This document shows, piece by piece, positions 11,518 to 62,870 of a stretch of 64,000 nucleotides of DNA. The notes beneath the pieces were generated by a model. The model was not told the DNA's origin and ran no database searches. It worked only from the letters and a program-made list of their open reading frames with translations. Origin of the DNA: an uncultured Verrucomicrobiales bacterium (GTDB taxonomy: Bacteria; Verrucomicrobiota; Verrucomicrobiia; Verrucomicrobiales; Akkermansiaceae); the NCBI GenBank assembly GCA_905478925.1, contig CAJQKQ010000020.1, positions 3,291 to 67,290 on the forward strand, given 5' to 3'. Numbering within the stretch: the stretch's first letter is position 1; each line of letters starts with the position of its first letter. Position numbers and translations under genes: made by a program.

Positions 11518-11576
11518 GAAAACTCAAAACTTAAAATTCAAAATTCAAACCCTAAGGAAGATAAGAGAATACGGTG
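11518..11576 (+). repeat. AT-rich heptad-periodic element, subtype 1, copy a
   Basis: GAAAACT CAAAACT TAAAATT CAAAATT CAAACCC TAAGGAA GATAAGA, then GAATACGG. It begins 7 nt from the EVE ATG (minus-strand gene). Confidence 0.85.
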
Positions 11577-11618
11577 GGCTGGTTTTGCGCCCCTTTGCGA
11601 CTTTGAGGTGAAAATTTC

Positions 11619-12620
11619 TCAGGAGGCGAGGGTGGGTTTTATGGAGGGGAGAGGGAGGTGCTCGGGGCCGAGTTCTAGGCCAGTCATGGAGCGTAGATCT
11701 GATTCGATTGCATCAAGCACATCCAGTTCGGGTTTGAAATCGGCGGCATGGTAGGAGGAGCGAACCAAAGGCCCGGAGGCGCAATGGCGGAAGCCTTTTT
11801 GCAGGGCGATCTGTTTGTATTCCTCGAATTGATCCGGGTGGATGTATTCGACAACCGGAAGATGCTTGGGAGTGGGACGAAGGTATTGGCCGAGGGTGAG
11901 GACGGTGACGTCGTGGGCGAGAAGGTCATCCATGGCTTGGAGTATCTCTTCCTTGCGTTCACCGAGGCCGAGCATGAGGCCGGATTTGGTGGCGACGTGG
12001 CCGTTGACCATTTGCTTGGCTTTTTGCAGGACGGTGAGCGAGCGCTGGTACTTGGCACGGGAGCGGACGAGCGGGGTGAGGCGTTCGACGGTTTCGAGGT
12101 TGTGATTGAAGATGTGAGGGCGGGCGTCCATGACCAGCTGGAGAGCCCAGTCGCGGTCGTTGAAATCGGGGACGAGGACTTCGATGATGATGTCGGGGTT
12201 GACCTCGCGGACGGCGCGGATGGTTTCGCGGAAGTGTTCGGCACCGCCGTCCTTGAGGTCATCGCGAGCGACGGCGGTGATGACGATGTGCTTGAGGTTC
12301 ATCCGGTTGGTGGCCTCGGCGATGCGGGCGGGTTCGTCGGATTCGAGGGCGTCGGGCTTGGCGGTCTTGACCGCGCAGAAACCGCAGGCACGGGTGCACT
12401 TGTCCCCGGCGATCATGAAGGTGGCGGTGCCCTGCCCCCAGCATTCCCAACGGTTTGGGCACTGGGCTTCCTCGCAGACAGTGACCAGTTTGAGGTCGGT
12501 GATTAGGGATTTGGTCGACCAGAAAGCCGGGTTGTTGGGCAGGCGAACCTTGATCCAATCCGGTTTTTTCTCCCGGTGGAGGGTCGGATCCATCTTCATT
12601 TTCGGGCCACAGGCGGACAT
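11619..12620 (-). CDS. lipA: Lipoyl synthase
   Basis: CEEAQCPNRWEC and the radical-SAM CTRACGFCAV motif. ATG at 12620 is preferred over TTG at 12662, because the extra residues GVEISSLKFRVS are a translation of the heptad repeat. Confidence 0.9.
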   Translation of the reverse strand: MSACGPKMKMDPTLHREKKPDWIKVRLPNNPAFWSTKSLITDLKLVTVCEEAQCPNRWECWGQGTATFMIAGDKCTRACGFCAVKTAKPDALESDEPARIAEATNRMNLKHIVITAVARDDLKDGGAEHFRETIRAVREVNPDIIIEVLVPDFNDRDWALQLVMDARPHIFNHNLETVERLTPLVRSRAKYQRSLTVLQKAKQMVNGHVATKSGLMLGLGERKEEILQAMDDLLAHDVTVLTLGQYLRPTPKHLPVVEYIHPDQFEEYKQIALQKGFRHCASGPLVRSSYHAADFKPELDVLDAIESDLRSMTGLELGPEHLPLPSIKPTLAS

Positions 12621-12630
12621 ACGGGAGACC

Positions 12631-12668
12631 CTAAATTTTAAACTACTAATTTCAACCCCCAAGAGTGG
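12631..12668 (+). repeat. AT-rich heptad-periodic element, subtype 2, copy b
   Basis: CTAAATT TTAAACT ACTAATT TCAACCC CCAAGAG TGG, directly upstream (gene sense) of the lipA ATG at 12620. Confidence 0.7.
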
Positions 12669-12699
12669 GTTTCTGAAAGGGGTTGTAATACAGAGTTTC

Positions 12700-12851
12700 G
12701 AACCACGGATGAACGCGTATGGACGCGGATGGAAATGGGAAAAAGCCTGGGTAAATCGAACGGCGAACGTTTGAAAGTCTTGAGCTGCTCTAGAAATCTT
12801 CTAACCAAATTCTGGAGAAAATCCGCGTTCATCTGCGTCCATCCGTGGTTC
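12700..12851. repeat. REP/MITE-like element with imperfect 31-bp terminal inverted repeats
   Basis: Left arm GAACCACGGATGAACGCGTATGGACGCGGAT (12700-12730). Reverse complement of the right arm GAACCACGGATGGACGCAGATGAACGCGGAT (12821-12851). 27/31 positions match, and the arms are built of 10-bp GGATGRACGC units. Confidence 0.8.
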
Positions 12852-12922
12852 ATTTCTTAAGATTTCATATACTCGCTCTCCTGCGCATGATTGGGATTGA
12901 TGATTTCGCGGGGCGGTAAAGG

Positions 12923-13738
12923 ATGGCCGGTGTGAAGGACGCGGCATTGGGATTTTTTGATTCGGGAGTGGGTGGGCTGACCGTGGTGCGGGCGGTGCAG
13001 GATCTATTGCCGGGGGAGGATGTGATCTATCTCGGCGATACGGCGCGGTTGCCGTATGGCTCGAAGAGTCCGGAGACGATACGCCAGTTCGCGGAGGAGG
13101 ATGTGAATTTCCTGCTTTCGAAAGGGGTCAAGGCGATCGTGGTGGCTTGTAATACGGCGACGGCGCATGCCCTGCCGAAATTTTGGGAGAACTGCCCGGT
13201 GCCGATCATGGGGGTGATTGAGCCGGGGGTTGAGGCGGTGCTGGCGGATGAGTCGGCGGAGCGGATCGGGATCATCGCGACGCGGGGGACGATCCAATCC
13301 CATGCCTACCAGCACGCGCTGGCGACGCGGAAGCGAGGGCTGATGATACACGGGATTGCGACGCCGCTGCTGGTGCCGCTGATCGAGGAAGACTGGATTT
13401 CCGAAGAGGTGACGAAGGAGGTCATCAATAAATACCTCGATCCGTTGGTCGCGAAAGGGATCGATACGCTGATGCTGGCCTGCACGCATTATCCGCTGCT
13501 GATGCCGGTGCTGGATGAGATTTTGCCCGGAGATGTGCGCTTGGTGGATTCCGCGACGACTTGTGCGGAGCGGCTGAAAGAGATGCTGGAGGGGACGGAT
13601 CTTCTTAATGCGAAGGGGGGCAACGGGAAGCTGGAGATTTATCTGACCGACCTTTCGGAGCAGTTCGAGGAATTGGCGAAGAGGTTTCTGCGGAGGCCGA
13701 CGGGGAAAGTGCGGCGAGCGGTGCTGAGTGCGAGTTGA
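12923..13738 (+). CDS. murI: Glutamate racemase
   Basis: FDSGVGGLTV, ACNTA and CTHYP motifs. Confidence 0.9.
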   Translation: MAGVKDAALGFFDSGVGGLTVVRAVQDLLPGEDVIYLGDTARLPYGSKSPETIRQFAEEDVNFLLSKGVKAIVVACNTATAHALPKFWENCPVPIMGVIEPGVEAVLADESAERIGIIATRGTIQSHAYQHALATRKRGLMIHGIATPLLVPLIEEDWISEEVTKEVINKYLDPLVAKGIDTLMLACTHYPLLMPVLDEILPGDVRLVDSATTCAERLKEMLEGTDLLNAKGGNGKLEIYLTDLSEQFEELAKRFLRRPTGKVRRAVLSAS

Positions 13739-13804
13739 GTTTCAGATCGTTTCTCAAAAGTCGGTTCGGGAAAACTAAATCATCGAACCCAAAGCCTGCG
13801 GCGG

Positions 13805-14728
13805 TCAGAGACACGCCGCTCCGGCTAGATCGAGCCATGGCTTGAAATCATCCGGGGGAGGGGCGGTGAAGTGGAGTTTTTGTCGGGAGACGGGATGCTC
13901 GAAGGAGAGTTGCCATGCGTGGAGCATGAGGCGGGGGGTGGGGAGTTCGTGTTTTTTCCCGTAGATGGGATCGCCGAGGATGGGGGTGCCGATATGGTGG
14001 AGGTGGACGCGGATCTGGTGGGTGCGGCCGGTGTGGAGGTGGCAGCGGATGAGGGCGGATTTGGTCGCGAGATCGGTGGCGAGGATGCGGTAATCGGTGA
14101 TGGCGGTTTTGCCGGCGGGCGGGGTGATGACCGCCATTTTCTGGCGGTTGACCGGGTGGCGGCCGATGTGTGTGAAGATGGTGTCCTTGTCCTTTAGTGG
14201 GATGCCGTGGGTGACGGCGAGGTAGAGCTTTTCCATGGTGGAGCGCTCGGAGAACTGGGTGACGAGAGACTGGTGGGCGATGTCTGTCTTGGCGACGACG
14301 AGGCAGCCGGAGGTGTCCTTGTCGAGACGGTGGACGATGCCGGGTCGCTCGACTCCGCCGATGCCGGAGAGTTTGCCCTTGCAGTGGTGGAGGAGGGCGT
14401 TGACGAGTGTTCCATCCGGATTGCCGGGGGCGGGGTGGACGACCATGCCGTGAGCTTTGTGGATGACGATGATGTCTGCGTCCTCGAACAGGATGTCGAG
14501 CGGGATGTCCTGCGGGGCGGCGATGTCGGGGACGGCCTCGGGGATGACGACGGAAATGGAGTCGCCGGTTTTCACGGAGTCCCGGGGCTTGGCTGGCTTG
14601 CCGTTGACGCGGATGTATTGCTCGCGAATCAGCGCCTGGATGCGGGAGCGGGAGAGGTCGTCCAGCTTTGAGGCGAGGTAGGCGTCGAGGCGGGGGTGGG
14701 TGCCTTCGGCTGAAATTTCAAAACTCAA
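13805..14728 (-). CDS. rluD: RluA-family 23S rRNA pseudouridine synthase (RluD-like)
   Basis: S4 domain (RLDAYLA...SRSRIQALI...VNG) and catalytic HRLDKDTSG. The only in-frame start upstream of the S4 domain is a TTG at 14728, which lies inside heptad element c. Confidence 0.85.
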   Translation of the reverse strand: MSFEISAEGTHPRLDAYLASKLDDLSRSRIQALIREQYIRVNGKPAKPRDSVKTGDSISVVIPEAVPDIAAPQDIPLDILFEDADIIVIHKAHGMVVHPAPGNPDGTLVNALLHHCKGKLSGIGGVERPGIVHRLDKDTSGCLVVAKTDIAHQSLVTQFSERSTMEKLYLAVTHGIPLKDKDTIFTHIGRHPVNRQKMAVITPPAGKTAITDYRILATDLATKSALIRCHLHTGRTHQIRVHLHHIGTPILGDPIYGKKHELPTPRLMLHAWQLSFEHPVSRQKLHFTAPPPDDFKPWLDLAGAACL

Positions 14729-14768
14729 AATTCAAAATTCAAACCTCAAGGAAGAGGTGATGGGGAAT
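14712..14768 (+). repeat. AT-rich heptad-periodic element, subtype 1, copy c
   Basis: GAAATTT CAAAACT CAAAATT CAAAATT CAAACCT CAAGGAA GAGGTGA. It overlaps the rluD start. Confidence 0.85.
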
Positions 14769-14944
14769 GGGGATTTTGAACCGCCAAGTTCGGCAACTAA
14801 GAGAAGCACCTTGCTTGTGTGGTGGTCGTGGATGCGGGAACTTGGGAGCATGATTTCAATTGCCTTGTATCGCTTTTGACTTGTTGTTCTTGGCTGTGGA
14901 AAGCTCTTCGTTTTCCAAGGAAGAACAGTGGCCGGAGGTCGCGG

Positions 14945-15586
14945 CTACGCGGGGGATGCGGTCTGGATGAGGACTTCGGTGATGGTCTGGACGTGATTGG
15001 CGGGAAGGGCTTCCGGGACGATGGAGCCGAGGACGATGCGTCCGTAGGGGGTCTCGCAGGGGATGACTTCGAGTATGGAGGCGGGGCCGACCTTGACGTG
15101 GATGTTGCCGGAACCACGGGATGCGAGGGCGAGGTTGCGAGCCATGAAATGGAGGCGGCCGTGGCCGCTTTCGTCGAAGATGACCTTGCCCTCGCGGTCG
15201 AGGATGAAGATGTCGGTGGCGTGGAAGTTTTTCGCCAGCCAGTCGCGGAAGATACGGATGCGTTCGAGGAACCTGGTTCGCGAGGGCGCGACGGGTGGTG
15301 GCTGGGGGGATTCGCTGATCGCGGAGAGGTTGGTTTCGGCTTTCCGGTGGGGAGCTTCCGTTTCGCGAGGAGGGGCTTGCGGGGGGGCAGCGGGCGCCTG
15401 TTGTTCCGGCTCTGCGGCCGGGGCGGGAGCGGGGGCTGCTACGGATTCGGGGGAAGTGAAGCCGACGAAGGATGGATCAAAGCCGGGATCGGCAGCCGAG
15501 AGGCGGGTGGGAGTGACCGGGCGCAGCAATTGTTCGGCGAGGTGCCGGACTTCCGCGGGGTCAAGCCATGGGTTGATGGGATCCAT
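14945..15586 (-). CDS. Hypothetical protein: N-terminal peptide, Pro/Ala-rich linker, Roadblock/LC7(MglB)-like C-domain
   Basis: 213 aa. Low-complexity linker APAPAPAAEPEQQAPAAPPQAPP. The C-terminal ATDIFILDREGKVIFDES...RIVLGSIV pattern resembles Roadblock/LC7. The start codon shares 1 nt with the stop of the upstream ParA-like gene (TGATG). Confidence 0.5.
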   Translation of the reverse strand: MDPINPWLDPAEVRHLAEQLLRPVTPTRLSAADPGFDPSFVGFTSPESVAAPAPAPAAEPEQQAPAAPPQAPPRETEAPHRKAETNLSAISESPQPPPVAPSRTRFLERIRIFRDWLAKNFHATDIFILDREGKVIFDESGHGRLHFMARNLALASRGSGNIHVKVGPASILEVIPCETPYGRIVLGSIVPEALPANHVQTITEVLIQTASPA

Positions 15587-16407
15587 CAGTCGGGCTGGAT
15601 ATGCGCTTGGTGGCGGGATTTTCCGAGCTTCGCCTGGACCTCGGCACGGAGCGAGTCGAAGACAGTTTCGGCGCCGCCGCCATCCTCCAGGACGCCCACC
15701 GGAAGGCCTTTCGCGCTGGCGCGGATATAGATTTCATCGCGGGGGATGGCTGTCTGGAAAAGCATTTCCTCCGGCAGTAACTGGCGCAGTGTGGAGGCGG
15801 CTTCGGTGCTCACGGCAAGCCCCTGCTGTAGCATCGTCAGGCAGACGCCGAGGACGTTGAGGCGGGGGTTGATGATGCGGAGGCGGTTGAGGCCTTCGAG
15901 CAATTTCGGCACCGAGCGGATTCCGAGCGGCTCGGCCTGCTGGGGGAGGATGAGTGCGTCCGCAGAGGCGATGACGTCGTTGGTGACACCGAAAAGGCCT
16001 GCTGCGGTGTCGATCAGGCAGATGTCGTAGCGGCGAGCGGAGACGTTCCTGAGGAAGGCTCTAACACGTGCGAGGTGGGATCCCGAAGAGCCGTTGCCGG
16101 CTTCGTAGTCGCTGGCCTGCCCTGCGGCGACGAGCGAGAAGGTTTCCAGTCGGGTAGGGACGATCAGGCGCTCCATGGGGATAGCAGGATCGGCCAGGAA
16201 ATCGTAGAATCCCGAAAGGAGTCGCGACTGGCGGGTTAGGGATAAGCCAACGGAGCCCTGCGGGTCCGCGTCGACGAGCAGGGTGCTCAGACCGGCGCGC
16301 GCAAAGGCGTGGGCGAGATTGATGGAAAGTGTGGTTTTACCCACACCACCTTTTTGGCTGGAGATGGCGATGCTGATCACGCGGAGGACGGAAATTTTTG
16401 TTCGCAA
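15586..16407 (-). CDS. Orphan ParA/MinD-family P-loop ATPase
   Basis: Deviant Walker A SSQKGGVGKTT, LVDADPQGS, Walker B ICLIDTA. No parB, min or flagellar genes nearby. The start is TTG 16407 or an internal GTG. Confidence 0.8.
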   Translation of the reverse strand: MRTKISVLRVISIAISSQKGGVGKTTLSINLAHAFARAGLSTLLVDADPQGSVGLSLTRQSRLLSGFYDFLADPAIPMERLIVPTRLETFSLVAAGQASDYEAGNGSSGSHLARVRAFLRNVSARRYDICLIDTAAGLFGVTNDVIASADALILPQQAEPLGIRSVPKLLEGLNRLRIINPRLNVLGVCLTMLQQGLAVSTEAASTLRQLLPEEMLFQTAIPRDEIYIRASAKGLPVGVLEDGGGAETVFDSLRAEVQAKLGKSRHQAHIQPD

Positions 16408-16494
16408 AGATTAACTGCGAGCAGGTGTAGCGGAAGTCTTTTCTTCTTCACTTGGCAAGAGCGGGAGTTTTGTGGATGCTGGTGCGACAGGAAA

Positions 16495-18675
16495 GTGAAT
16501 CGCCCGAACCCAAAACAACTTATTTTTGCAGGACTCGCCATCAGCGGGGTCTTTTTGCTCGGCGGTTGCGGTGAGAAAGAGGCGGATGCAGAGCTTCCGC
16601 CGGAAATTTTCGGGGATATGGGTTCAAGCGTCGCAGATGAGAATGCGCTGAAGGGCTTGCCGGGGATAATTTATTCCGCGGCGGAATCCTCGCCGATTCA
16701 TTGGCAGCCGTGGCAGAAGGAGAGCATGGAGATGGCCGAAAGATCCCAACGGCTCATGCTCGTGGTCATCGCGATACCCCAGCAGCCGTCGTATGCCCGA
16801 ATTCTCGCCGATCTCGCGGCGGATCCCAAGACGGTTGATGAGATCAACCGGAACTATGTGCCTATCTTGGTGGATGGCGACTCGGTGAGGGAGCTGGGAA
16901 TACTGACGGCGTATTTGTGCGGCGAGATCGGCAGTCGGGTGCAACTGCCGCTGATGGTCTGGATGACACCGGATTGCAATCCGGTGGCGTGGATCCCCCT
17001 GCCCGCAAGCGGGTCGAAATCTGTCGTGGAGCTTTTCAGTCAATCGCACGAGATGGTCGGGAATATCTGGGTCGAGGATCCCGCGTATGTTTCGCTGAAT
17101 AGCCGCATGGATCAGGAAAATCGGGCGGTGCGGATAAAGAAGAGGCTGGCCGAGCGGGAACTGAGCGAAGAGCCGGGAGCCGATTCACTTCGCGCCCTGC
17201 GCCAGCTCACTTCGCTGTATGATCCCGTTTCGCGGACCTTCGATGGAGCGGGGGGGCTTTTCCCCTGCGGTGCGATCGACCTTCTTTCGATGGGCGCCCG
17301 CATGGATGATATATCCGGGAGGCTCCGCGAGAAGTGCAAGGATACGCTGGAAAATCTGCTAGATGATCTCCTTGTCAGCGCCATGTTCGATCCGCTCGAT
17401 GGAGGGGTCTACAATTCCAGGCGCGGCTCTACCTGGGCGCTCCCCGGCTTTCACCGAGATTGTGCAACTCAGGCGCGCGTAGCCGTTTCTCTGCTCGATG
17501 GCTACGGCGTCACCGGCGACAAGAGGGCACTTGAACGCGCCCTCGGTATCCTTACCTTCGTGGAGAAAACCTACCGCACCCAAGGAGGGCTTTTCTCCCT
17601 CGGTGGCGGAAGGGCAGGTGATACGGAGGCTTGGCTCTGGCGCTATGAGGATGTGAAGGATTGGCTGAGCGAGGAGGAGCTGTCCGCGTGGGTTCTGGCC
17701 TCGGGGGTGAAGGTTTCGGGCAACCTGCCTTCCGAGGCCGACCCCTTGAGGAAGTTTTTTCGTGCAAACAGCATTTCCTTCGCGAAAACGGCGGAGCAGG
17801 TCTCCGCATTGTCTGGAGTCGATGTAAAATCCACGGAGGCGGCGCTTGGGAGTGCGAGGGAGAAACTGCTCAAAGTGCGCGACAACCGCCTGAATCCGCC
17901 TGCCGAGAAACGCGCCGGCAACGCTGCTGCCACGTTCCGGGTGGTTTCCGCCTACGCTACGGCCTACAGAATCACCGGGGATGAGGACTTCCGCGAGCGC
18001 GCGGCCTCCACACTGACCAAGGCGAGGCAGAGTTTTGCGGATGGGCCGCGACTCAGATCCTACGACCGCGACGCGGCGCCGAGCCTGGTTGCCGGTAGGG
18101 CGTTCACCTACGGGCTGGCGATTCAGGCTGCGCTCGATGTCGCCGCAGTGACCCTCGATGAAAGCTGGATCCTGTGGGCGGGTGACCTTTCCAGTACCGT
18201 CTCGGAGATTTTCGTCCAGGACGATTCCCTGAGGGAATGTCCCGCCGGCGCGGATCTGACTGGTTTGCCTGTTGTTGATCTCGAGATGATGTTCGGTCAG
18301 TCGAGCATGGGGCTTCTTTCGATGGCGGATTCCCGCCTGGAGGCACTGGGCATCCCGCTGGTGCCTTCCTTTTCGGCGCGCGTCGACGGGCTGCCGCTCG
18401 CCGCCCTCGATCGCCCCATCCAGCATACCGATATCATCCAGGCCGTCCTGATGAGGGAGCATGGGTTCACCTATGTTTTCGGCGATGATGTCCCTGCTGA
18501 AATGAGGGAGGCGATCGCCAGAAGTCCCCTGAAAGGCGTGAACCGCCGAGGATACTCCGCGCTGCCTGTAAAAGGGCAAGAGCTGGATCCGCAGGGAGCG
18601 CTGCGGATCGGCCCCGGGAAAAAAATTCAGCGGATTGAGAGCGCCGACGATATCGCCGTTCCTGCCTTGCCATAA
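16495..18675 (+). CDS. Lipoprotein, DUF255/YyaL-like (thioredoxin-fold plus six-hairpin domain) lacking the CxxC
   Basis: GTG at 16495 gives MNRPNPKQLIFAGLAISGVFLLGGCG (lipobox). SPIHWQPWQKESMEMAERSQRLMLVVIA aligns to the YyaL N-terminus, but the usual CHWCH segment is IPQQPSY. The upstream part of ORF 16309-18675 overlaps parA. Confidence 0.6.
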   Translation: MNRPNPKQLIFAGLAISGVFLLGGCGEKEADAELPPEIFGDMGSSVADENALKGLPGIIYSAAESSPIHWQPWQKESMEMAERSQRLMLVVIAIPQQPSYARILADLAADPKTVDEINRNYVPILVDGDSVRELGILTAYLCGEIGSRVQLPLMVWMTPDCNPVAWIPLPASGSKSVVELFSQSHEMVGNIWVEDPAYVSLNSRMDQENRAVRIKKRLAERELSEEPGADSLRALRQLTSLYDPVSRTFDGAGGLFPCGAIDLLSMGARMDDISGRLREKCKDTLENLLDDLLVSAMFDPLDGGVYNSRRGSTWALPGFHRDCATQARVAVSLLDGYGVTGDKRALERALGILTFVEKTYRTQGGLFSLGGGRAGDTEAWLWRYEDVKDWLSEEELSAWVLASGVKVSGNLPSEADPLRKFFRANSISFAKTAEQVSALSGVDVKSTEAALGSAREKLLKVRDNRLNPPAEKRAGNAAATFRVVSAYATAYRITGDEDFRERAASTLTKARQSFADGPRLRSYDRDAAPSLVAGRAFTYGLAIQAALDVAAVTLDESWILWAGDLSSTVSEIFVQDDSLRECPAGADLTGLPVVDLEMMFGQSSMGLLSMADSRLEALGIPLVPSFSARVDGLPLAALDRPIQHTDIIQAVLMREHGFTYVFGDDVPAEMREAIARSPLKGVNRRGYSALPVKGQELDPQGALRIGPGKKIQRIESADDIAVPALP

Positions 18676-18728
18676 GGGAGAAAATATACGTGTGTAACAT
18701 ACAGCAAAGAACCCAAGTAAAAGCATCT

Positions 18729-19790
18729 ATGAATTTCAGGAATCTATCCCTACTCGCAGCCAGTTGCCTCATATTTGCACAGGCTGCCGCAGCAGACATG
18801 ATCGTGCTCAAGAGCGGGGAGAAAATTAACGGGACGGTTATCCGTGAGGATGGCAAAAACTACGTGGTTGAGGTGAAGCTTGGCACGATACGCGACGAGA
18901 AGCTTATTCCTCGCGACGATGTCAGCTACATCGACAAGCAGAAGGCCGATGAGAAGGCATTTGTAGAGCTTGAGGGGCTGTTGCCGACTCCGGAGTTGCT
19001 AAGCAAGGAGGCTTATGAGGCGCGGACCGCGAAGCTGGAGGGATTCGTGAAGGCGTATCCGGAAAGCCGTAAGGTTCGGGTTGTGAAGGAGATGCTCGAC
19101 GTGCTCGGCGAGGAGCATGCGGTGGTTGCGGCTGGAGGCATCAAGTTCGGGGAAGAGATGGTTTCTGCGGACGATTACGAGTCGAACGCCTACGAGTATG
19201 ACGTCAGGATCGCGGAAAAAAAAATCAAGGATTCCGTCGCCCGCAGGGATCTGCTGGGAGCGCTACGCAAGTTCTCAGAATACGACGTAAAGTTCGGTCA
19301 GTCGGAGAGCAATCAGGGGATGGCCGCGCTTATCCTGCAGGTTCTCAAGGCATACCGTCACAGCCTGGATGAAAATCTTGCCAGTCTCGAAAGGCGGATC
19401 GAGAAGCGCCAGTCCGGACTTGCGAGCATGTCCTCGGAAGACAGGTCGAATACGGAACTGGCCCTGAAAGAGCAGATGGAAAAGCTTGAGAAGCGTTATA
19501 TGGAGGAGAAGGCGGCGGGTCAGAAATGGATCACCCCCGATGCCTTCCACAAGCAATCCATGGACGAGGCGCTGCGTCATGTTACGGCGGAGATATCAAG
19601 AATCGAGGGGCGCCAGGCAGGCGAGTCGCTCGAGATCCCCCTGGCGGAGATCTATCGCATCGCAAGGAGCAAGCTTGTCGATGGGACCGAGGCGGAGAAA
19701 AAGAAAGTTCTGGATGAGGCGAAAGCGAACCGCCTGACGGAATTCTATCTGCAGAAATTGCGGATCTGTGCGGGTCTTGATGAAAACTGA
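18729..19790 (+). CDS. Secreted coiled-coil hypothetical protein (contains a PTPEL motif)
   Basis: ATG at 18729, signal peptide MNFRNLSLLAASCLIFAQAAAA, N-terminal beta-rich module (IVLKSGEKINGTVIREDGKNYVVEV), then long helical regions. Confidence 0.6.
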   Translation: MNFRNLSLLAASCLIFAQAAAADMIVLKSGEKINGTVIREDGKNYVVEVKLGTIRDEKLIPRDDVSYIDKQKADEKAFVELEGLLPTPELLSKEAYEARTAKLEGFVKAYPESRKVRVVKEMLDVLGEEHAVVAAGGIKFGEEMVSADDYESNAYEYDVRIAEKKIKDSVARRDLLGALRKFSEYDVKFGQSESNQGMAALILQVLKAYRHSLDENLASLERRIEKRQSGLASMSSEDRSNTELALKEQMEKLEKRYMEEKAAGQKWITPDAFHKQSMDEALRHVTAEISRIEGRQAGESLEIPLAEIYRIARSKLVDGTEAEKKKVLDEAKANRLTEFYLQKLRICAGLDEN

Positions 19791-19811
19791 TTTCGAAAAA
19801 AAGGGAAATAT

Positions 19812-20402
19812 ATGGAAGTAAGGAAGGCGAAGCGCAGCCGGCGCACGGCGGAGACGGAGATTGATCTGGAGATCAATCTCGACGGCTCCGGGACATCGGA
19901 GATTGATACGGGGATTCCGTTTTTCGATCACATGCTGACGTTGTTCTCCAAGCACGGCCTATTTGATCTGAATGCCCGGGTGCAGGGTGACATTGAGGTG
20001 GATTTTCATCACACCATCGAGGACACCGGGATCGTCATCGGCGAGTGCATGCGCGAGGCGCTGGGCACGAAGGAGGGCATACGCCGCTACGGCTGTGCCT
20101 ACCTGCCGATGGATGAGACCTTGGTAAGGGTGGTTGTCGATCTGAGCAACCGGCCGCACCTGGAGTTCCGCGCACCGGCCGGGACAGCTTCCGCGCCGAA
20201 CATGCCTTTCACTTTGGTGGAGGAATTCTGCCGCGCGGTCGCGAGCAACCTGCGTGCGAACGTGCACGTTGAGCTTCTCTACGGACGCGACGGGCACCAC
20301 ATCGCCGAGGCGGTGTTCAAGGGGCTGGCACGTGCCTTGCGGGAAGCCTGTGAGAAGGACGCCCGCGTGAAAGGCATACCGAGCACCAAGGAATCACTGT
20401 GA
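19812..20402 (+). CDS. hisB: Imidazoleglycerol-phosphate dehydratase
   Basis: RRTAETEIDLEINLDGSG...GIPFFDHML...DIEVDFHHTIEDTGI...HHIAEAVFKGLARAL are conserved HisB motifs. Confidence 0.92.
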   Translation: MEVRKAKRSRRTAETEIDLEINLDGSGTSEIDTGIPFFDHMLTLFSKHGLFDLNARVQGDIEVDFHHTIEDTGIVIGECMREALGTKEGIRRYGCAYLPMDETLVRVVVDLSNRPHLEFRAPAGTASAPNMPFTLVEEFCRAVASNLRANVHVELLYGRDGHHIAEAVFKGLARALREACEKDARVKGIPSTKESL

Positions 20403-21019
20403 GGATCGGTCTTGTGAATTATGGAGGGGGAAACCTCCGCAGCGTGGAAAACGCGCTCCATGCCCTCGGTGTGTATCCGGAGGTGATCGTGGATGCCGCC
20501 GGACTCGAAGGCATCACCCATCTCATCCTGCCCGGGCAGGGAGAGTTCGGCGATGTGATGGCGCAGCTCGGCAAGAGGGGGCTGGTGGAGCCGCTCCGGG
20601 AATGGATTTCAGCGGGCAAGCCCTACTTCGGCATTTGCGTTGGCTTCCAGATTCTTTTCGAAGGCAGCGACGAGGCACCCGATGTCCCGGGGCTCGGGGT
20701 CGTAAAGGGCAGGTGCGTGCGTTTCAAGGAAGTCACCGGGAAGAAGGTGCCGCAGATGGGTTGGAACGCGGCGGTGCCGCAGGTGCCCGGCTCGAAGTTC
20801 TGGAAAGGCCTCGGCGATGAGCCGTATTTCTATTTCGTCCATTCCTATTTCCCCGTGCCGCAGGATTCCTCATGGGGAGTTTCCCTCACCGATTACGCCG
20901 GGGAGGAATTCGCCGCCACTGTGGAGAAGGGCGAAGTCTTGGCCTGCCAGTTCCACCCGGAGAAAAGCCAGGATGCGGGGCTGGTGCTGATGAGGAATTT
21001 CCTTTCGGGAGGCGAGTAG
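20399..21019 (+). CDS. hisH: Imidazole glycerol phosphate synthase, glutaminase subunit
   Basis: GNLRSV, LILPGQG, GICVGFQIL (catalytic Cys), QFHPEKS. The GTG start overlaps the hisB stop (GTGA). Confidence 0.9.
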   Translation: MRIGLVNYGGGNLRSVENALHALGVYPEVIVDAAGLEGITHLILPGQGEFGDVMAQLGKRGLVEPLREWISAGKPYFGICVGFQILFEGSDEAPDVPGLGVVKGRCVRFKEVTGKKVPQMGWNAAVPQVPGSKFWKGLGDEPYFYFVHSYFPVPQDSSWGVSLTDYAGEEFAATVEKGEVLACQFHPEKSQDAGLVLMRNFLSGGE

Positions 21020-21137
21020 GCTGAAGCCTACTAAGGAGTGGCTGGGCAGGGGTGCTTTGGTTGCCGGGCAGCGGAACGCATGCCGGGCAGCGGAACGCAG
21101 CCCCTCCTTGGGGACTACTCTCCGGAGATAAAACGAA

Positions 21138-21165
21138 GCAGCCTGACCGGTGAGGGTCAGGCTGC
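21138..21165. terminator. Hairpin between convergent hisH and tal (bidirectional terminator candidate)
   Basis: GCAGCCTGACC-GGTGAG-GGTCAGGCTGC, an 11-bp perfect stem. Confidence 0.55.
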
Positions 21166-21193
21166 GGTGAAGTATTTCTAAGCTACGTGAGGC

Positions 21194-22153: not shown

Positions 22154-22200
22154 ATCGGGGAAACCGTAACGGAGGACAGGCGGGTGTGAACGCTAATCGG

Positions 22201-22623: not shown

Positions 22624-22629
22624 CAGAAG

Positions 22630-22902: not shown

Positions 22903-22907
22903 GGTTT

Positions 22908-23186: not shown

Positions 23187-23229
23187 AATGAGATTTTCAG
23201 AAACCAGGTACCAGAATCCAGAGGAGAGC

Positions 23230-28695: not shown

Positions 28696-28738
28696 GGAAA
28701 TTCTAAACTTTAAATTCGAAATCTGAAACGAAATACGG
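28696..28738 (+). repeat. AT-rich heptad-periodic element, subtype 2, copy d
   Basis: GGAAATT CTAAACT TTAAATT CGAAATC TGAAACG AAATACG. It starts 7 nt from the ntrC-like ATG and ends at the kinase stop codon. Confidence 0.85.
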
Positions 28739-29905: not shown

Positions 29906-29982
29906 CGCCGAGAGGATGGGGGCTTTCGTAGAAATTCCAATTCCAAATCCACAGCATTCTACGAACGTATGAAAAATGAAAA

Positions 29983-30008
29983 CCCGCCAGGAGAGGGCTC
30001 CTGGCGGG
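29983..30008 (-). terminator. Intrinsic terminator of the LysM gene
   Basis: 11-bp perfect stem CCCGCCAGGAG/CTCCTGGCGGG with a 4-nt loop. On the minus strand it is followed by TTTTCATTTTTCAT. Confidence 0.7.
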
Positions 30009-30056
30009 TTGTTCCATTTTGGGGCTGTCTGTCCCCGGGCTTACCGAGCCGCACGC

Positions 30057-37648: not shown

Positions 37649-37797
37649 GACGGAAAGTGGCGGGTGTTTCCGGGATTGCAAGCTGCAGTTGAATCGAACG
37701 GAAAGGCTCTTACGGCGGGGGTAATCCATCACGATGGTTTCAATCTTTGAAATGAAATTCGAATAGATTCCTCGAACCCCTAGTCAAAGAAAGCACC

Positions 37798-48694: not shown

Positions 48695-48715
48695 GGATCA
48701 CTGATTCAATCAAGG

Positions 48716-52677: not shown

Positions 52678-52679
52678 TT

Positions 52680-52730
52680 GGAAATCTAAATTTTAAATTC
52701 GAAACCCCAATGAAGACTTTGGAAGAGGGG
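52680..52730 (+). repeat. AT-rich heptad-periodic element, subtype 2, copy f
   Basis: GGAAAT CTAAATT TTAAATT CGAAACC CCAATGA AGACTTT GGAAGAGGGG, between moxR and the DUF58 gene. Confidence 0.85.
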
Positions 52731-52748
52731 CTGGATTAAGAGTATCAG

Positions 52749-53639: not shown

Positions 53640-53644
53640 GAGTT

Positions 53645-55155: not shown

Positions 55156-55156
55156 T

Positions 55157-57091
55157 ATGAATTTCGAATATCCAGCATGGCTTTGGCTGTGGGTCGCAGT
55201 GCCGATCCTCGCGGTCGGTGCTGTCCTGACGGGGCGTTTTATGAAAAGGCCGTGGGAGGAGTTTGCGGCTGAGCGGCTGCGGGGAAGGCTGGTAAAGCGC
55301 GATCATCCGCTGCCACGCTGGCTGGCTCTTGGGATGATACTCGCGGCCATGGCGGCGCTGATCTTCAGCTTGGCAAGACCGCAGGGCGATGCCGGCACCA
55401 AGACGGAAAAGACAAGCGGCCGCAATGTCATGATTGCCCTCGATCTTTCGCGCAGCATGAGAGTGCAGGACGTGAAACCGGATCGCCTGGCGCAGGCGAA
55501 GATCGTCATCTACGAGCTGCTTGAATCGCTGAAAGACGACCGTGTGGGATTGATCGGCTTTGCTGGATCTCCGTTTCTTTCCGCGCCCCTGACCATCGAC
55601 CACGTTGCGGTGAAGGAAACGGTGGAGCAGATCGACGAGAAGTGGGTTTCCAAGGGGGGGTCTGATATTGCGGCTGCGATCAAGCTGGCGACGGCGACGC
55701 TTAGGGAAACAGGGCAAAAGAACAACGCGCTCATTGTGATTAGCGATGGCGAGGAGAACGAAGGCGACCTCGACGCGATCATCGCCGACGCCGAGAGCTC
55801 CGGAGTGACGATCTTTGCCGTAGGGGTCGGGACCGAAGACGGCGGTTTTGTGCCCCATCCGGATTTCCCCGATGGTTTGGTGGACAAGGCAGGAAACCGG
55901 ATATTGAGTCGGTTGCAGCCGGAGGTGATGCGCAAGTTGGCGAACGGGACGGGAGGCCGGTATGTGATCGCCGGGCGTGGTGCGGACATCCCTTCGATGG
56001 TGGAGGTTGCGATCGAGGGCATCGATGCGTTCGAAATGGAAGGTGGGCGGACAAGGATCGTGATCGAATTTTTCCAATGGGCGTTGTTTCCGGCTATCGT
56101 TTTTCTGATGGGTGCCATTGTCTCTGGTACGCGCTGGAGAGGGATGTCCGGTGCGGCTGCAATGCTGTTTTTCCTGATGGTGCCGCAACAGACATGGGCG
56201 GATACGGTTTCGGAAGCCCGCAAGGCGTTCACTGAAAAGCGTTATGATGAGGCACGGGATGCCTACCGTTTCCTTGCCGATGGCAAGCAACCCGGCGGGC
56301 GGCGGGCGAAATACCGGCTTGGGGAGGCTTTGTCTGCGTATCAGGCGCAGGACTACCGTGGCGCACGGATGGCATACAGCGAGGCGCTTCTTGCCGACGA
56401 GTCGGAGGTTGTTGCAGCGGCACACGAGGGGATGGGTAACACACTTTTCCAACTCGGCTGGATGGGTCTTTCCGGCAGTCGCTATCCGGAGGGTGATGAT
56501 ATCCCTGATATGGAAAAGTTCGATGAGCTGGTGCAAGAGCAGCTGAAACGGATGGCTGAGGCGGAGCCGCCCGAATCCGGGGAGACCAACGAGTTCATCC
56601 GTCTCGATTCGATCATCCTTAACTGGACGGATACGGTGAGGCATTACCGCTCGGCCTTGGCCAAAGACCCGGCGGACGCCGCGCCGCGGCGCAACGAGAA
56701 ACTCACGATAAATTACCTCAAGAGGCTCCAGGAACTTCTCGAAGAGGAGAAGCAGCAGACGGAAGAGGAGATGCCGCAGCCGGGCGAAGGAGAGCCGCAG
56801 GAAGGTGAGGGCGAAGGTGAGCCGCAGGAAGGTGAGGGTGGCGGTGAGCCGCAGGAGAATGGTGACGCCGGCAGCGGCGACGAGGAAAACGAGGAGGGCA
56901 AGGGCGGCGACGAGGAGGAGGAAGGCGACAAAGGCAAGGAACCCGATACTACCGAAGAGGAAGGCGAGGGAGATCCGAACGAATCGCCCGAAGAGCGAGC
57001 CCGGCGCATCCTTTCGGAAAATGCAGATTTGGAGAAAGGCCCGCTATCACCCGGGCGGCGGGAGTTCAGGAATCCCGAAAAAGATTGGTAA
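55157..57091 (+). CDS. batB: BatB-like VWA protein fused to a TPR (BatC-like) region and an acidic repeat tail
   Basis: VWA MIDAS DLSRSM...SDG, internal TMs, TPR-like segment (YDEARDAYRFLADG...YRGARMAYSEAL), and an EGEPQEGEG repeats tail. Confidence 0.8.
   Translation: MNFEYPAWLWLWVAVPILAVGAVLTGRFMKRPWEEFAAERLRGRLVKRDHPLPRWLALGMILAAMAALIFSLARPQGDAGTKTEKTSGRNVMIALDLSRSMRVQDVKPDRLAQAKIVIYELLESLKDDRVGLIGFAGSPFLSAPLTIDHVAVKETVEQIDEKWVSKGGSDIAAAIKLATATLRETGQKNNALIVISDGEENEGDLDAIIADAESSGVTIFAVGVGTEDGGFVPHPDFPDGLVDKAGNRILSRLQPEVMRKLANGTGGRYVIAGRGADIPSMVEVAIEGIDAFEMEGGRTRIVIEFFQWALFPAIVFLMGAIVSGTRWRGMSGAAAMLFFLMVPQQTWADTVSEARKAFTEKRYDEARDAYRFLADGKQPGGRRAKYRLGEALSAYQAQDYRGARMAYSEALLADESEVVAAAHEGMGNTLFQLGWMGLSGSRYPEGDDIPDMEKFDELVQEQLKRMAEAEPPESGETNEFIRLDSIILNWTDTVRHYRSALAKDPADAAPRRNEKLTINYLKRLQELLEEEKQQTEEEMPQPGEGEPQEGEGEGEPQEGEGGGEPQENGDAGSGDEENEEGKGGDEEEEGDKGKEPDTTEEEGEGDPNESPEERARRILSENADLEKGPLSPGRREFRNPEKDW
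56792..56872 (+). repeat. Three tandem 27-bp coding repeats (EPQEGEGEG units)
   Basis: GAGCCGCAG recurs at 56792, 56819 and 56846. The units are nearly identical. Confidence 0.85.
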
Positions 57092-57094
57092 TAT

Positions 57095-60534: not shown

Positions 60535-60595
60535 CCCTGTTCCGTGCCGGGAATCGCAGCTTGCGGTGAGGTGGTAAGCGGGGCTACTTTCCGGA

Positions 60596-61129
60596 ATGAA
60601 ATTTCTGCGCCTTGCCGCGATCCTCGCGCTATGCATTCTCCCGGTTTTCTCGGAAGAGTCCGGTTTCAAGGCGGTCGACGGGCCGAATGTCAGGGTTATG
60701 CGCCATGACGACGGTTCGCGAACCGTTTTCACCCGCAGCCCCGACAACCGTGTGCTGACAAAGAAGACTTATACCGGGAACGGCGCGCTTTTCCTTGTCA
60801 CGATCTACCGGATGGACGCGCACGGGAATCCGATGAACTGCAAGATTTACGATGGGCAGAAGACTGAGATGTTCAAATCTCGTTATGGCTACAGGAAGAC
60901 CGACGGCCAGCTGGTGGAGGAACAGATGTTCGACTCTCGGGTGAAGCGGATCGATCCTAATACCGGGGAGGAAATGCCAGTGCGGCGCTTCATCTACACT
61001 TACGACGCTCTCGGCAACCGCAGCGCCCCAATCTCGATTACCCTGATACCTGGTAAGACCGCGGAGGATGTCTTCGGCGGGCCGAGTGTGCTGGATGTGA
61101 ATCCGTTCGATGCGCCTGCGGGTAGGTAA
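60596..61129 (+). CDS. Small secreted protein with YD-repeat-like motifs
   Basis: Signal peptide MKFLRLAAILALCILPVFS. YRMDAHGNP, YGYRKTDGQ, YTYDALGNR resemble YD repeats. Confidence 0.55.
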   Translation: MKFLRLAAILALCILPVFSEESGFKAVDGPNVRVMRHDDGSRTVFTRSPDNRVLTKKTYTGNGALFLVTIYRMDAHGNPMNCKIYDGQKTEMFKSRYGYRKTDGQLVEEQMFDSRVKRIDPNTGEEMPVRRFIYTYDALGNRSAPISITLIPGKTAEDVFGGPSVLDVNPFDAPAGR

Positions 61130-61141
61130 TTGACGTTTCCA

Positions 61142-62413
61142 ATGATGTCCGGAAAACAGTTGTTGCCGCTGCTGGTAGGGGTGGCGCTTGGGGTAGGTGG
61201 CTGGTTGTATGGGCACCGCGGCGGCGTGATTCCGGGAGTTTCCATGGAGGATGGAGATTTGAGGGGAAGGATCGCGATGCTGGAGAGGGAGAATGCGTCT
61301 TTGCGTTCGTTGGCGCAGGGCGGTGGGGAAGTCGCTGTGCCGCCGGAGATGGTCGCGCAGGTGGAGAAGGATTATGGGCTATCATTCCTATCAAGTCCTG
61401 TTTTTCACCGGGTTGCGGCGGAGGAGTTGGGATATCGGATCGAGGCGGCGATCGAAAGCCGGCTCGGCCCGCAGGGTGCGGATGACAGGCAGGAGGCATG
61501 GCGGCGGATGGGGTTGCTGCGGGAAGGCGATAAATTGCTCAAACAGCTGGTGGCGGTGAAATCTGTGGGAGCGATCGGATGGTTCGACCAGGTAAGTGGT
61601 GAGGCATGGGTGACGGATCGCTTTGATCCCAAGAATATTCCCGATCAGGCGGCGATGCTGCGGCTGCTTGTGCGGATCCTGCTGAACCAGAATTTCCCGC
61701 CGCCGCCCGCGTATCCCGGCGATGATGCGGCGCGGGCGAGGGAGTCATTGCATGCGGGCGCGGCGAAGGGTGCGGAGTCGCGCCTCTACGCGGCGAGCGC
61801 ACGGGGGATCGGTTTCCTGCCGATGAACGATGACGGCCCTGCGGCGCGGTTGCTGCTCTCGCTGCCGCCCTTTGTGCAGGGGATTACGCAGTTCCCGGCG
61901 ATGGAAGGCAAGGCGTTTGCTGATACGGCCTACGTGAAAGGGACGGAGGCTTTTGCGGAGGGGATGCGGGATGGGATTCAGAGCACCTTCGGAGTGGCGT
62001 TCCCCTCGGAGAAAGAAGACGGCGGCGAGATTGTTTTTCCGGAGATTTCCGACGAGATCTATCTGGAGGAAAGCGGTGGGTATCTGGGGCTTAGGCTGTG
62101 GATTGCGGAAGGTGGTGATGTGGGCCTTGCCGGGGAGGTCGCCCGGGAATGGTTGGCAGACCGATACGTTCTTTTCGCAGATGGTGAGATGTCCTCGGGA
62201 TTGGCTTGGGATGTGGTTTTCGGGGATGGCGAAGCGGCGGATCGTTTCGAAAACTCATGCCATGATCGGCTGGGAGCGCTGGCGGAGGATGGCCGCCTGC
62301 TCGATGTCGTGAGGCTGGGGGAGAAGCGGGTCAGGTTTCTGAATGTGGCGACGGGGAAGGCATTGGAAAAATTCAAAATTCAAAATTTAAAATTCAAGGG
62401 AGAGAAGAAATGA
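61142..62413 (+). CDS. Membrane-anchored hypothetical protein
   Basis: ATG at 61142, one TM (LLPLLVGVALGVGGWLYG), a coiled segment, no known motif. The last 15 codons (EKFKIQNLKFKGEKK) read through heptad element g. Confidence 0.55.
   Translation: MMSGKQLLPLLVGVALGVGGWLYGHRGGVIPGVSMEDGDLRGRIAMLERENASLRSLAQGGGEVAVPPEMVAQVEKDYGLSFLSSPVFHRVAAEELGYRIEAAIESRLGPQGADDRQEAWRRMGLLREGDKLLKQLVAVKSVGAIGWFDQVSGEAWVTDRFDPKNIPDQAAMLRLLVRILLNQNFPPPPAYPGDDAARARESLHAGAAKGAESRLYAASARGIGFLPMNDDGPAARLLLSLPPFVQGITQFPAMEGKAFADTAYVKGTEAFAEGMRDGIQSTFGVAFPSEKEDGGEIVFPEISDEIYLEESGGYLGLRLWIAEGGDVGLAGEVAREWLADRYVLFADGEMSSGLAWDVVFGDGEAADRFENSCHDRLGALAEDGRLLDVVRLGEKRVRFLNVATGKALEKFKIQNLKFKGEKK
62366..62408 (+). repeat. 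AT-rich heptad-periodic element, subtype 1, copy g
   Basis: AAAAATT CAAAATT CAAAATT TAAAATT CAAGGGA GAGAAGA, ending 1 nt before the yjbQ ATG. Confidence 0.85.
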
Positions 62414-62829
62414 AAGTGCATACGGCTGAGATGAAGGTGGAGACGCGGGGTAAGGGGACGTATGAGATTACGGATGAGATTACGCGGATCGTTAGGAACA
62501 CCGGGGTCACGGACGGACAGGTTACGGTTTTCCTGTGTCACACCAGTGCGAGTCTTGTGCTGATGGAAAATGCGGATCCGAGCGCGCGGCGTGACCTTGA
62601 GCGTTGGTTTGACCGTTTGGTGAGGGAGGACGATCCTGATTTTATCCACACCCACGAGGGGCCAGACGATATGCCCAGCCACATCCGGATGGCGCTGACG
62701 CGATCCAGTGAGGTGATCCCCATCCATGGCGGGCGGATGACGCTGGGGACGTGGCAGGGAATTTTTGTGTTTGAACACCGGAGGGATCCGCATGGACGGC
62801 GAATCGCGGTGACGGTGATGGGTGCCTGA
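62410..62829 (+). CDS. yjbQ: YjbQ/UPF0047 family (secondary thiamine-phosphate synthase) protein
   Basis: 139 aa. HTSASL...ENADP...D...H.HEGPDDMPSHI...GRM.LGTWQGI are UPF0047 hallmarks. Confidence 0.85.
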   Translation: MKVHTAEMKVETRGKGTYEITDEITRIVRNTGVTDGQVTVFLCHTSASLVLMENADPSARRDLERWFDRLVREDDPDFIHTHEGPDDMPSHIRMALTRSSEVIPIHGGRMTLGTWQGIFVFEHRRDPHGRRIAVTVMGA

Positions 62830-62833
62830 AACC

Positions 62834-62870
62834 CGAAATTCTAAACTTTAAACCCTAACGAAGAGGGGAT
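62834..62870 (+). repeat. AT-rich heptad-periodic element, subtype 2, copy h
   Basis: CGAAATT CTAAACT TTAAACC CTAACGA AGAGGGG, between yjbQ and nadC. Confidence 0.8.

Follow-up and report, generated by a model that had tools for sequence, protein, structure and literature searches.

Repeats with a unit of seven nucleotides are found in several bacterial lineages, the STRR repeats of Cyanobacteria being among them. In marine Beggiatoaceae, as well as in some Cyanobacteria and Bacteroidetes, there are direct repeats of the heptamer TAACTGA, the most numerous of which stop about 1 nt short of a start codon, usually one without a ribosome-binding site, and S1, Csp or CsrA have been suggested as possible binders; of 170 sets of these repeats, 147 have the 'forward' orientation, facing the start codon (MacGregor 2015, PMC4679880). 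In Nostoc PCC 7120, start codons or -10 boxes have (TTCAAAA)n arrays at distances of up to about 100 nt, deletion of the arrays altered reporter output, and a binding partner is suspected (bioRxiv 10.1101/2022.06.06.494920). Here we describe an AT-rich element with the same period in the DNA of an uncultured Verrucomicrobiales bacterium (Akkermansiaceae; assembly GCA_905478925.1, contig CAJQKQ010000020.1, positions 3,291 to 67,290), a stretch of 64,000 nucleotides that we call the window. Its copies consist of three to five in-phase units N-AAA-N-Y-Y, in most cases followed by a purine-rich tail (AAGGAAGAG or GAAGAGGGG), and lie at gene boundaries in the window and in related genomes. The form that abuts start codons, which is U-rich in the mRNA, stands almost only before genes on the C-rich (lagging) strand, GC skew being the evidence that ties this asymmetry to replication.

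Anatomy and gene-boundary position

A metagenome scan with the tail pattern yielded about 45 distinct loci of 53-63% GC; they served to build an nhmmer model, which detected additional copies in them. The resulting alignment holds 55 distinct copies, and the 42-nt element model reads TGAAACTTTAAATTTTAAACTTTAAACCTCAAGGAAGAGGGG. The overall consensus, TGAAAC-(TTTAAAN)3-CCTCAAGGAAGAGG, is strikingly uniform across the loci (A-rich strand: TGAAAC TTTAAAT TTTAAAC TTTAAAC CTCAAGGAAGAGG), the tail itself being two diverged heptads. On the U-rich strand the invariant columns are T triplets in a strict 7-nt register, G22 and the block TCTTC-TT, and the purines between the triplets vary; such a constant step would fit a single-strand reader with the same register. 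A 4-bp mini-hairpin in the tail (CCTC/GAGG) finds no support from covariation, with 79.1% of cells paired vs 79.0% in shuffles. The consensus contains stops in all three frames of both strands. Viral contigs, also scanned, gave chance matches only.

Genes around the copies were called from codon usage, with 94 database-called genes for training, and the caller recovers the genes known in the window. According to what the GAAAC head meets, the copies fall into two types:

S-type, 41 of 55 copies: the head adjoins the start codon of an opposite-strand gene, within 3 nt in 22 copies
E-type, 14 of 55 copies: the head adjoins the stop codon of a same-strand gene and in most cases overlaps it (TGA or TAA + AAC)

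Distances on the tail side are less exact: the boundary of the following gene is -21 to about 200 nt away, apart from an outlier at about 800 nt. For about half of the S-type copies an upstream co-directional gene ends inside the tail or at most 30 nt from it, and the commonest arrangement, read in the sense of the genes, is a stop codon in CCTCTTCCTTGAGG or in the first heptads, then (TTTAAAG)n, then TTTC-ATG. The starts concerned are genuine N-termini, including those of ArgG (MKIVVAYSGG), CysN, CysD, AroC and an ArsC-like protein, and no Shine-Dalgarno (SD) sequence lies between element and ATG in S-type genes.

An earlier note on the window had held that the elements have no hairpin potential, and hence are neither repetitive extragenic palindromes (REP), miniature inverted-repeat transposable elements (MITE) nor terminators. 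For the window copies this stands: their folding (z -1.4 to +2.2 overall) is no better than that of shuffles and they have no imperfect palindrome of the kind seen in REP units; of 200 shuffles, 197-200 fold better than the RNAs of the A-rich strand (z +2.2 and +1.9), whereas RNAs of the U-rich strand fold about as well as shuffles. It does not extend to related genomes, where at least 11 loci carry convergent pairs of elements with their tails inward, 15-100 nt apart and sometimes around a canonical terminator. These pairs, of which the window has none, fold very stably, at -35 to -58 kcal/mol (z -4.0 in locus L191, -10.5 in L130). Both orientations can also occur within one operon (L166). 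Other heptamer repeats adjoin the element in places, namely (GGGGATT)n in L225 at about 4320-4365 and repeats of the GAATGGG/CGC type to its right in L129 and L175.

The window itself carries seven copies, found where the earlier note had placed them, and one possible degenerate copy:

copy 1, 11518..11568, + strand: S-type, GGAAAACT CAAAACT TAAAATT CAAAATT CAAACCC TAAGGAAGATAAGAG (nhmmer E=3.3e-6)
copy 2, 12628..12668, + strand: degenerate S-type, ACCCTAAATTTTAAACTACTAATTTCAACCCCCAAGAGTGGG (nhmmer E=0.84; given as 12631 in the earlier note)
copy 3, 14712..14760, + strand: S-type with canonical tail AAACCTCAAGGAAGAGGTG (nhmmer E=1.8e-8)
copy 4, 28696..28738, + strand: S-type, five heptads, without canonical tail (nhmmer E=0.009)
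copy 5, 52680..52735, + strand: E-type with tail AATGAAGACTTTGGAAGAGGGG (nhmmer E=1.2e-7)
copy 6, 62366..62409, + strand: four heptads followed by AAGGGAGAGAAGAA, within the 3' end of the upstream open reading frame (ORF)
copy 7, 62827..62870, + strand: E-type, head TGAAAC, tail AACGAAGAGGGG (nhmmer E=2.4e-10)
possible degenerate copy, 23187..23229, + strand: CAGAAAC CAGGTAC CAGAATC CAGAGGA GAG in heptad phase, with no match to the nhmmer model

An eighth copy, also on the + strand, lies 4.7 kb beyond the right edge of the window (L004, 15091) and touches the argG ATG without a spacer; leftward extension of the window (L259) revealed no copies. That the copies belong to one family, with the A-rich strand on + whatever the strand of the neighbouring gene, was borne out by pattern searches. 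The pattern AAANYYNAAANYYNAAANYYNAAA (four units, up to two mismatches) gave 20 overlapping matches at six copy sites, all on + and none on -, where shuffles lead one to expect 0.06, and the heptad-plus-tail pattern AAANYYNAAACCYYAANGAAGA matched four copies, again all on +, with 0 expected. TRF reports a period of 7 with 4.3-4.6 copies at 11519, 14718 and 62368. Among the weaker candidates proposed earlier, 23187-23229 is plausible as a degenerate copy; 29931-29957 proved to be a hexamer repeat, (AATTCC)3, no copy was found at 37751-37790, and the supposed tail fragment at 8340-8351 is a mere 12-nt resemblance that does not convince. The family had been described as unrecognised, and Rfam indeed has no match to it: at the gathering threshold the whole window returned tRNA-Leu alone, and an E-value search of 11400-14900 gave only chance miRNA matches away from the elements. 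Precedent does exist, however, in the heptamer repeats of Beggiatoaceae (PMC4679880) and Nostoc (bioRxiv 10.1101/2022.06.06.494920).

Copy 1 is the intercistronic spacer of a minus-strand operon running from LipA to an EVE-domain gene, its head 7 nt from the ATG of the latter (11510) and the LipA stop (11619) 50 nt past its tail. Copy 2 lies about 8 nt from the LipA ATG (12620, -), within a divergent region of 302 nt that has a racemase gene at its other end (12923, +), and the first possible start codon of an RluD-like gene (TTG 14728, -) falls within the heptads of copy 3. Copy 4 fills the entire 50-nt spacer between a histidine-kinase stop (28739, -) and the ATG of an NtrC-like regulator (28688, -), which is 7 nt away, just as the degenerate candidate at 23187-23229 fills the spacer of two minus-strand genes (start 23186, stop 23230). 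Copies 5-7 lie between co-directional plus-strand genes (MoxR/DUF58, hypothetical/YjbQ and YjbQ/NadC), with the ATGs of DUF58, yjbQ and nadC about 3-33 nt past their tails. The head of copy 5 is 2 nt past the MoxR-like stop (52675-52677), the DUF58 ATG being at 52749. Copy 6 occupies the last 15 codons of the hypothetical-protein ORF 61130-62413 (...EKFKIQNLKFKGEKK*) and is directly 5' of the yjbQ ATG (62410), which overlaps the stop of that ORF as ATGA. The TGAAAC of copy 7 supplies the stop codon of yjbQ (TGA 62827-62829), and nadC starts at 62881.

The earlier note stated that each copy abuts a start codon. Starts are indeed near all window copies; what the GAAAC end abuts, though, is either a start on the opposite strand or a stop on the same strand, and most copies make up the whole intercistronic spacer. 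Adjacency to start codons is partly trivial, since in the short spacers of co-directional genes a start codon is inevitably close. The further observation that the element gives minus-strand genes U-rich leaders and plus-strand genes A-rich leaders with an SD-like tail is supported.

Other repeats and signals were noted in the window: a perfect 19-bp tandem duplication at 21062-21099, in the spacer that follows a gene whose end is at 21019; at 56740-56856, repeats with units of 15, 21 and 27 nt, which encode an acidic low-complexity stretch (e.g. EEEKQQT) in the VWA-domain (BatA/BatB-like) gene 55157-57091; and at 29981-30010 a bidirectional terminator with a 13-bp stem, between the histidine-kinase operon and the next minus-strand gene, so that canonical terminators coexist with the elements.

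Strand polarity and Shine-Dalgarno scarcity

The GC content of the window is about 58%. In almost all 2-kb bins its GC skew falls between +0.04 and +0.30, and it is positive across Pfam-confirmed genes of both strands. A skew of one sign over genes of both strands is of the replication type, which by the usual rule makes + the G-rich (leading) strand. The skew is also unusually strong, at 0.1-0.3 per 2 kb in the window and up to -0.47 in the relative L267, and it keeps its sign over genes of both strands in the loci examined (L183, L230, L265 and L267; real genes of both strands are Pfam-confirmed in L183 and L230). The C-rich strand carries long runs of genes, as at 21-38 kb of the window.

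To remove the effect of gene strand, a balanced skew was taken for each locus as the mean of the skews of same-strand and opposite-strand genes. In the A-rich orientation of the element it is as follows:

S-type, 24 scorable copies: 22 positive, 1 negative, 1 near zero
E-type, 10 scorable copies: 5 positive, 3 negative, 2 near zero

By this proxy the A-rich strand is the leading strand in all eight copies in and beside the window and in 22 of the 24 S-type copies elsewhere. The link with the replication strand that the earlier note had suspected therefore holds beyond the window for S-type copies and does not for E-type ones, whose negative cases are mostly upstream partners of S-type copies in lagging-strand operons (L130, L166, L172, L177, L191). 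Base composition was considered as the source of the polarity and rejected: the preference of the tail for the G-rich strand is offset by the C of the heptads on that strand, for a net effect of about nil.

Leaders differ between the strands in a second respect. In the window and 12 related loci, SD-like cores (GGAG, GAGG, AGGA or AAGG) occur at -18 to -4 of 27/89 leading-strand vs 6/98 lagging-strand genes, and upstream G content is 0.28 vs 0.15. The difference in SD-like cores may be purely compositional; either way the two strands offer the ribosome different leaders.

Patchy distribution and growth in place

The closest homologues of the window's YjbQ (88-93% identity) and ArgG (up to 94%) bear the labels Akkermansiaceae, Luteolibacter or Verrucomicrobiales bacterium, on which ground Akkermansia itself, which the gene content might suggest, was rejected as the source. 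One ArgG protein (P0198), with 83% identity to that of the window organism, is recorded under a fish (Nerophis lumbriciformis), and is probably bacterial contamination of that assembly. Among such relatives the element is patchy. The window organism has eight copies in 73 kb; in four relatives with 80-90% ArgG identity the element is missing at argG and throughout the 21-kb loci, no copy was found in the Amuc_1100 loci of two Akkermansia species (L261-L263), and three yjbQ loci of relatives hold weak or remnant matches only, one of them moderate (E=0.0014). The argG copy is present in the window organism and in L240 (84% identity) and absent from the closer L267 (90%), a pattern that points to repeated gain or loss. 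Deep conservation of the element at argG was not found among relatives.

Orthologous spacers are of similar length with and without the element (51, 50 and 37 nt). The array 5' of yjbQ has one heptad in L264 vs four in the window, a difference of 21 nt that adds seven residues in frame; the C-terminus of the hypothetical protein 61130-62413, DUF8575-like in relatives, is here encoded by the heptad array. Between yjbQ and nadC, L264 has a diverged array, whereas L266 lacks one. In L130 a unit of element and terminator is duplicated in tandem (about 90-100 nt). No variation in heptad number was found among six metagenome-assembled contigs of the window organism, four of them nearly identical over 11.6 kb. 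These comparisons imply repeated gain or loss of the family and growth of its arrays in place, by addition of heptads.

Neither a candidate binding protein nor a Y1 transposase gene was found near the copies, and tblastn with the Y1_Tnp protein of L264 matched only L264 itself and L123, with no match in the window or in copy-rich loci. The L264 gene belongs to a segment (14500-20420; CP059069.1, Akkermansiaceae bacterium) that encodes a PhdYeFM/PIN toxin-antitoxin pair and an IS200/IS605-type Y1 transposase, shows a local reversal of GC skew, and is probably acquired DNA.

A scan of a genome collection with a general heptad pattern listed unrelated heptamer repeats of many phyla, and no closed genome of the clade is among the matches listed. 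Within those matches, A-rich heptamer arrays (AAAATCT, AAAGTCA, AAATCCG, AAAACTG and others; L007-L126) are frequent in Cyanobacteria, Bacteroidota, Acidobacteriota, Planctomycetota, Verrucomicrobiota, Chloroflexota and Patescibacteria and nearly absent from the sampled Proteobacteria and Firmicutes; 26 of the 131 listed have a sense start codon at most 30 nt downstream. Phyla poor in SD motifs are among those in which such arrays are common. Long telomere-like (CCCTAAA)n arrays were also seen, in a contig of a Rhodothermales metagenome-assembled genome (L026, at least one at the end of the locus) and near the end of locus L219, on a metagenome contig.

Possible roles and comparison with known systems

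The role that we favour, tentatively and with less than even confidence, is that of an AU-rich, unstructured translation-initiation spacer working without an SD sequence at cistron boundaries. It is suggested by the position of the element, its lack of structure, its closure of all six frames, the absence of an SD on S-type genes and the parallels in the literature. Related Verrucomicrobia have been described as 'SD-scarce' (PMC10783764). The element would then be a cis-acting 'punctuation' between the cistrons of certain Verrucomicrobiales, in which a stretch of about 35-45 nt, AU-rich and free of structure, closes all reading frames, and the next start codon is offered to the ribosome without SD pairing. 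Anatomy, boundary position, strand polarity, lack of structure and the SD scarcity of lagging-strand leaders are observed; beyond these, translation would be the process served and a protein would read the heptads, and the likeliest reader would be ribosomal protein S1 or another single-strand RNA binder recognising the invariant U (or A) triplets 7 nt apart. In lagging-strand operons the mRNA would carry the U-rich, pyrimidine-rich form CCUCUUCCUUGAGG-(UUUAAAG)3-UUUC-AUG, and in leading-strand operons the A-rich form, whose tail AAGGAAGAGG could double as an SD, with arrays lengthening or shortening in place through heptad slippage.

Several observations weigh against such a spacer. Its role in translation is deduced from position only. 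Were lack of structure in the leader the only thing that counts, the least-structured, A-rich form would be expected before every gene; in fact the U-rich form prevails, and only genes of the lagging strand have it, and base composition alone fails to predict this polarity, the heptads carrying C, not G, on the G-rich strand. The element is dispensable, as the close relatives without a copy at argG express that gene all the same. Moreover, two S-type copies, those of the window organism's argG (105 nt) and of L130, stand between a canonical terminator and the start codon; in L130, 7 nt separate the T-run of the hairpin from the element and about 55 nt separate it from the ATG. An order of terminator, element and start suggests a promoter instead of, or besides, a leader. 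The distances between E-type tails and ATG in the window, about 3, 13 and 33 nt, are inconsistent as SD spacing. A reading centred on the polarity, which we regard as possible but doubtful, is that in this clade, with its extreme strand asymmetry, the U-rich start-abutting form is a signal reserved for lagging-strand (head-on) genes, and a lineage-specific protein would read the U (or A) triplets at their 7-nt register, on the mRNA or on the exposed lagging-strand template.

That the element is a promoter is unlikely on present evidence. Read in the sense of the gene that it abuts, a compact sigma-70-type promoter (TTGAGG, 16 nt, TAAAGT) would give leaderless or very short-leader mRNAs, the heptads supplying the -10 and easy melting. 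The consensus CCTCTTCCTTGAGG TTTAAAG TTTAAAA TTTAAAG TTTC includes TTGAGG-N16-TAAAGT, most variants of the last heptad keep TAnnnT, the ATG is 7-12 nt past the -10 hexamer in about 15 copies, as fits a leaderless start, and the scan called TTCAGA-16-TAGAAT on the minus strand within copy 4. In the two copies that follow a terminator there is no other AT-rich DNA before the ATG, and Cappable-seq found about 10% leaderless transcription start sites in one Verrucomicrobium, though an organism without this element (PMC4782308). The match is weak evidence, however, because TAnnnT is inherent to every TTTAAAG heptad. In the largest and best-conserved class (about 17 copies) TAAAGT ends 2-4 nt before a genuine ATG, so that a start site 6-9 nt on would drop the start codon, and for the heptad one step upstream (TAAAAT) a TTG-like -35 is lacking at 16-18 nt; most copies are operon-internal, where a promoter is unneeded, and a strict promoter scan showed no excess of sites. 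ECF, sigma-E, sigma-54 and Bacteroidetes-type promoters, ARG and CodY boxes and an integration host factor (IHF) site were compared by eye and rejected on misfitting spacings or half-sites; a Rho utilisation site was unconvincing too, the A-rich strand being G-free and unstructured but only about 15-22% C. A role at transcript ends is highly improbable: here the tail mini-hairpin and the U-rich heptads together would make up a weak intrinsic terminator or attenuator, or the AAAG/UUU units would be RNase E cleavage sites between cistrons, and convergent pairs may serve as bidirectional terminators or RNase III sites. The scan did flag ACCTCTTCCTTGAGGT and the T-rich run that follows it as terminator-like (copy 3, minus strand), copies come directly after tRNA genes (L197, L266) or terminators (L144, L221), and the convergent pairs combine strong folding with, in one case, an enclosed canonical terminator. 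The stem has just 4-5 bp and lacks covariation, though; only one of the four window copies scanned (1-4) was flagged, copy 3 with its 5-bp stem, placement is precise relative to the downstream start and not to the upstream stop, and the genome has canonical terminators elsewhere, at 29981-30010 and upstream of argG. By the standard of a GC-rich stem of at least 5 bp with a U run after it, the element is no intrinsic terminator, although convergent pairs of other genomes would be. The units match the RNase E consensus RN/WUU, a fit expected of any AU-rich RNA.

Two further explanations take the DNA rather than the transcript as the substrate. A polar protein site tied to replication would have its A-rich strand as the lagging-strand template, with a protein reading (YYYYAAA)n-GAAGAGG there or on the duplex; it may serve in priming or restart, in the management of head-on transcription or as the end of a single-strand transposition substrate, and gene boundaries may be the only places where it is tolerated. 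This would account for an orientation that follows the chromosome strand and not the gene, both in the window organism, whose eight copies adjoin genes on both strands, and in S-type copies elsewhere, where gene strand is balanced; the Pfam-confirmed genes of both strands in L183 and L230 and the strict triplet register without covariation indicative of RNA structure agree with it. We nevertheless think it rather improbable, as E-type copies are not polar, both orientations occur in one operon and in convergent pairs, the defined end meets start and stop codons to the nucleotide, which is unexpected for a gene-independent site, and neither a binding protein nor a Y1 transposase was found near copies; the polarity proxy, besides, is balanced skew and not a mapped origin or terminus. 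Equally, there is little likelihood that the element is a spreading repeat without function of its own, either DNA like REP doublets (REPIN) or MITE mobilised in trans or AT-rich spacers expanding by heptad slippage, tolerated only between genes and owing its polarity to the mutational or transposition mechanism. The patchiness, the argG copy shared with L240 and missing from the closer L267, convergent doublets with long hairpins resembling REPINs, heptad gain in place and the duplication in L130 all speak for it. Against it stand a very sharp consensus common to many genomes and loci, including the non-repetitive TCTTCCTTGAGG and GTTTC, the lack of target-site duplications at pair boundaries, of GTAG and of an internal REP-type palindrome, orthologous spacer lengths that argue against simple insertion, the constancy of heptad number in the window organism and the absence of a transposase nearby. 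None of the proposed readings accounts for the restriction of the start-abutting form to lagging-strand genes.

If the element is a start-site signal, it would show how an SD-poor lineage marks cistron starts within operons, and would be a portable 40-nt part for gene expression in Verrucomicrobia. The lagging-strand restriction of its start-abutting form, together with the roughly fivefold rarity of SD-like motifs on lagging leaders, suggests that replication-strand asymmetry can shape expression signals; should the form be a dedicated lagging-strand signal, expression signals would be encoded differently on the two replication strands. For annotation, elements provide start and stop codons and can extend ORFs by multiples of three heptads.

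The comparison with known systems sets the element apart from several of them. REP and REPIN sequences, mobilised by RAYT (Y1) transposases, are likewise short, intergenic and of lineage-specific abundance, and they occur, as the element does outside the window, as singlets and inverted long-hairpin doublets; single-strand transposition at the replication fork could yield a replication-linked orientation bias. Our element, however, has no internal palindrome or GTAG, is AT-rich and not GC-rich, has no RAYT gene that we could find near its copies, and in the window occurs only as structure-free singlets. It differs from a MITE in that its convergent pairs have no consistent target-site duplication at their outer boundaries and orthologous spacers are of similar length. 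With KOPS and Chi it shares a strong bias to one orientation relative to the G-rich (leading) strand; those are G-rich 5-8-mers across coding DNA, whereas the element is a 40-nt AT-rich composite confined to gene boundaries, of which only the start-abutting class is polar. S1-dependent AU/U-rich enhancers offer a likeness in the unstructured AU-rich stretch right 5' of the start and in an SD-poor host lineage, lagging-strand leaders especially, but known ones form no sequence-conserved repeat family and have neither a heptad register nor a fixed chromosomal orientation.

The heptamer repeats are closest. The commonest unit of the window, AAAATTC/TTCAAAA, is the same heptamer as that of the Nostoc arrays, a likeness of sequence and not a demonstrated homology; those are pure tandem repeats without head or tail, with no strand polarity reported. 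As with the TAACTGA repeats, short arrays (2-6 units) of an AT-rich heptamer are mostly intergenic, some overlap ORF ends, they share no common gene function and have a patchy phylogeny, and the start-abutting majority has no SD in between. Unlike them, the verrucomicrobial element has a different unit, conserved non-repeat ends (TGAAAC head, CCTCAAGGAAGAGG tail) and convergent pairs, and it has no fixed gene orientation: one DNA orientation serves genes of both strands in the window, both S-type and E-type copies occur elsewhere, and orientation follows the chromosome strand, the form before starts being the U-rich complement. This strand polarity is new relative to the known heptamer repeats and is unexplained. 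The element provides a well-defined, sequence-conserved case of the unexplained bacterial heptamer repeats near starts, one in which a search for the binding factor becomes practical. It is best regarded as a variant of these known yet unexplained repeats, from which it differs by its conserved non-repeat ends, its convergent pairs and its orientation with the chromosome strand.

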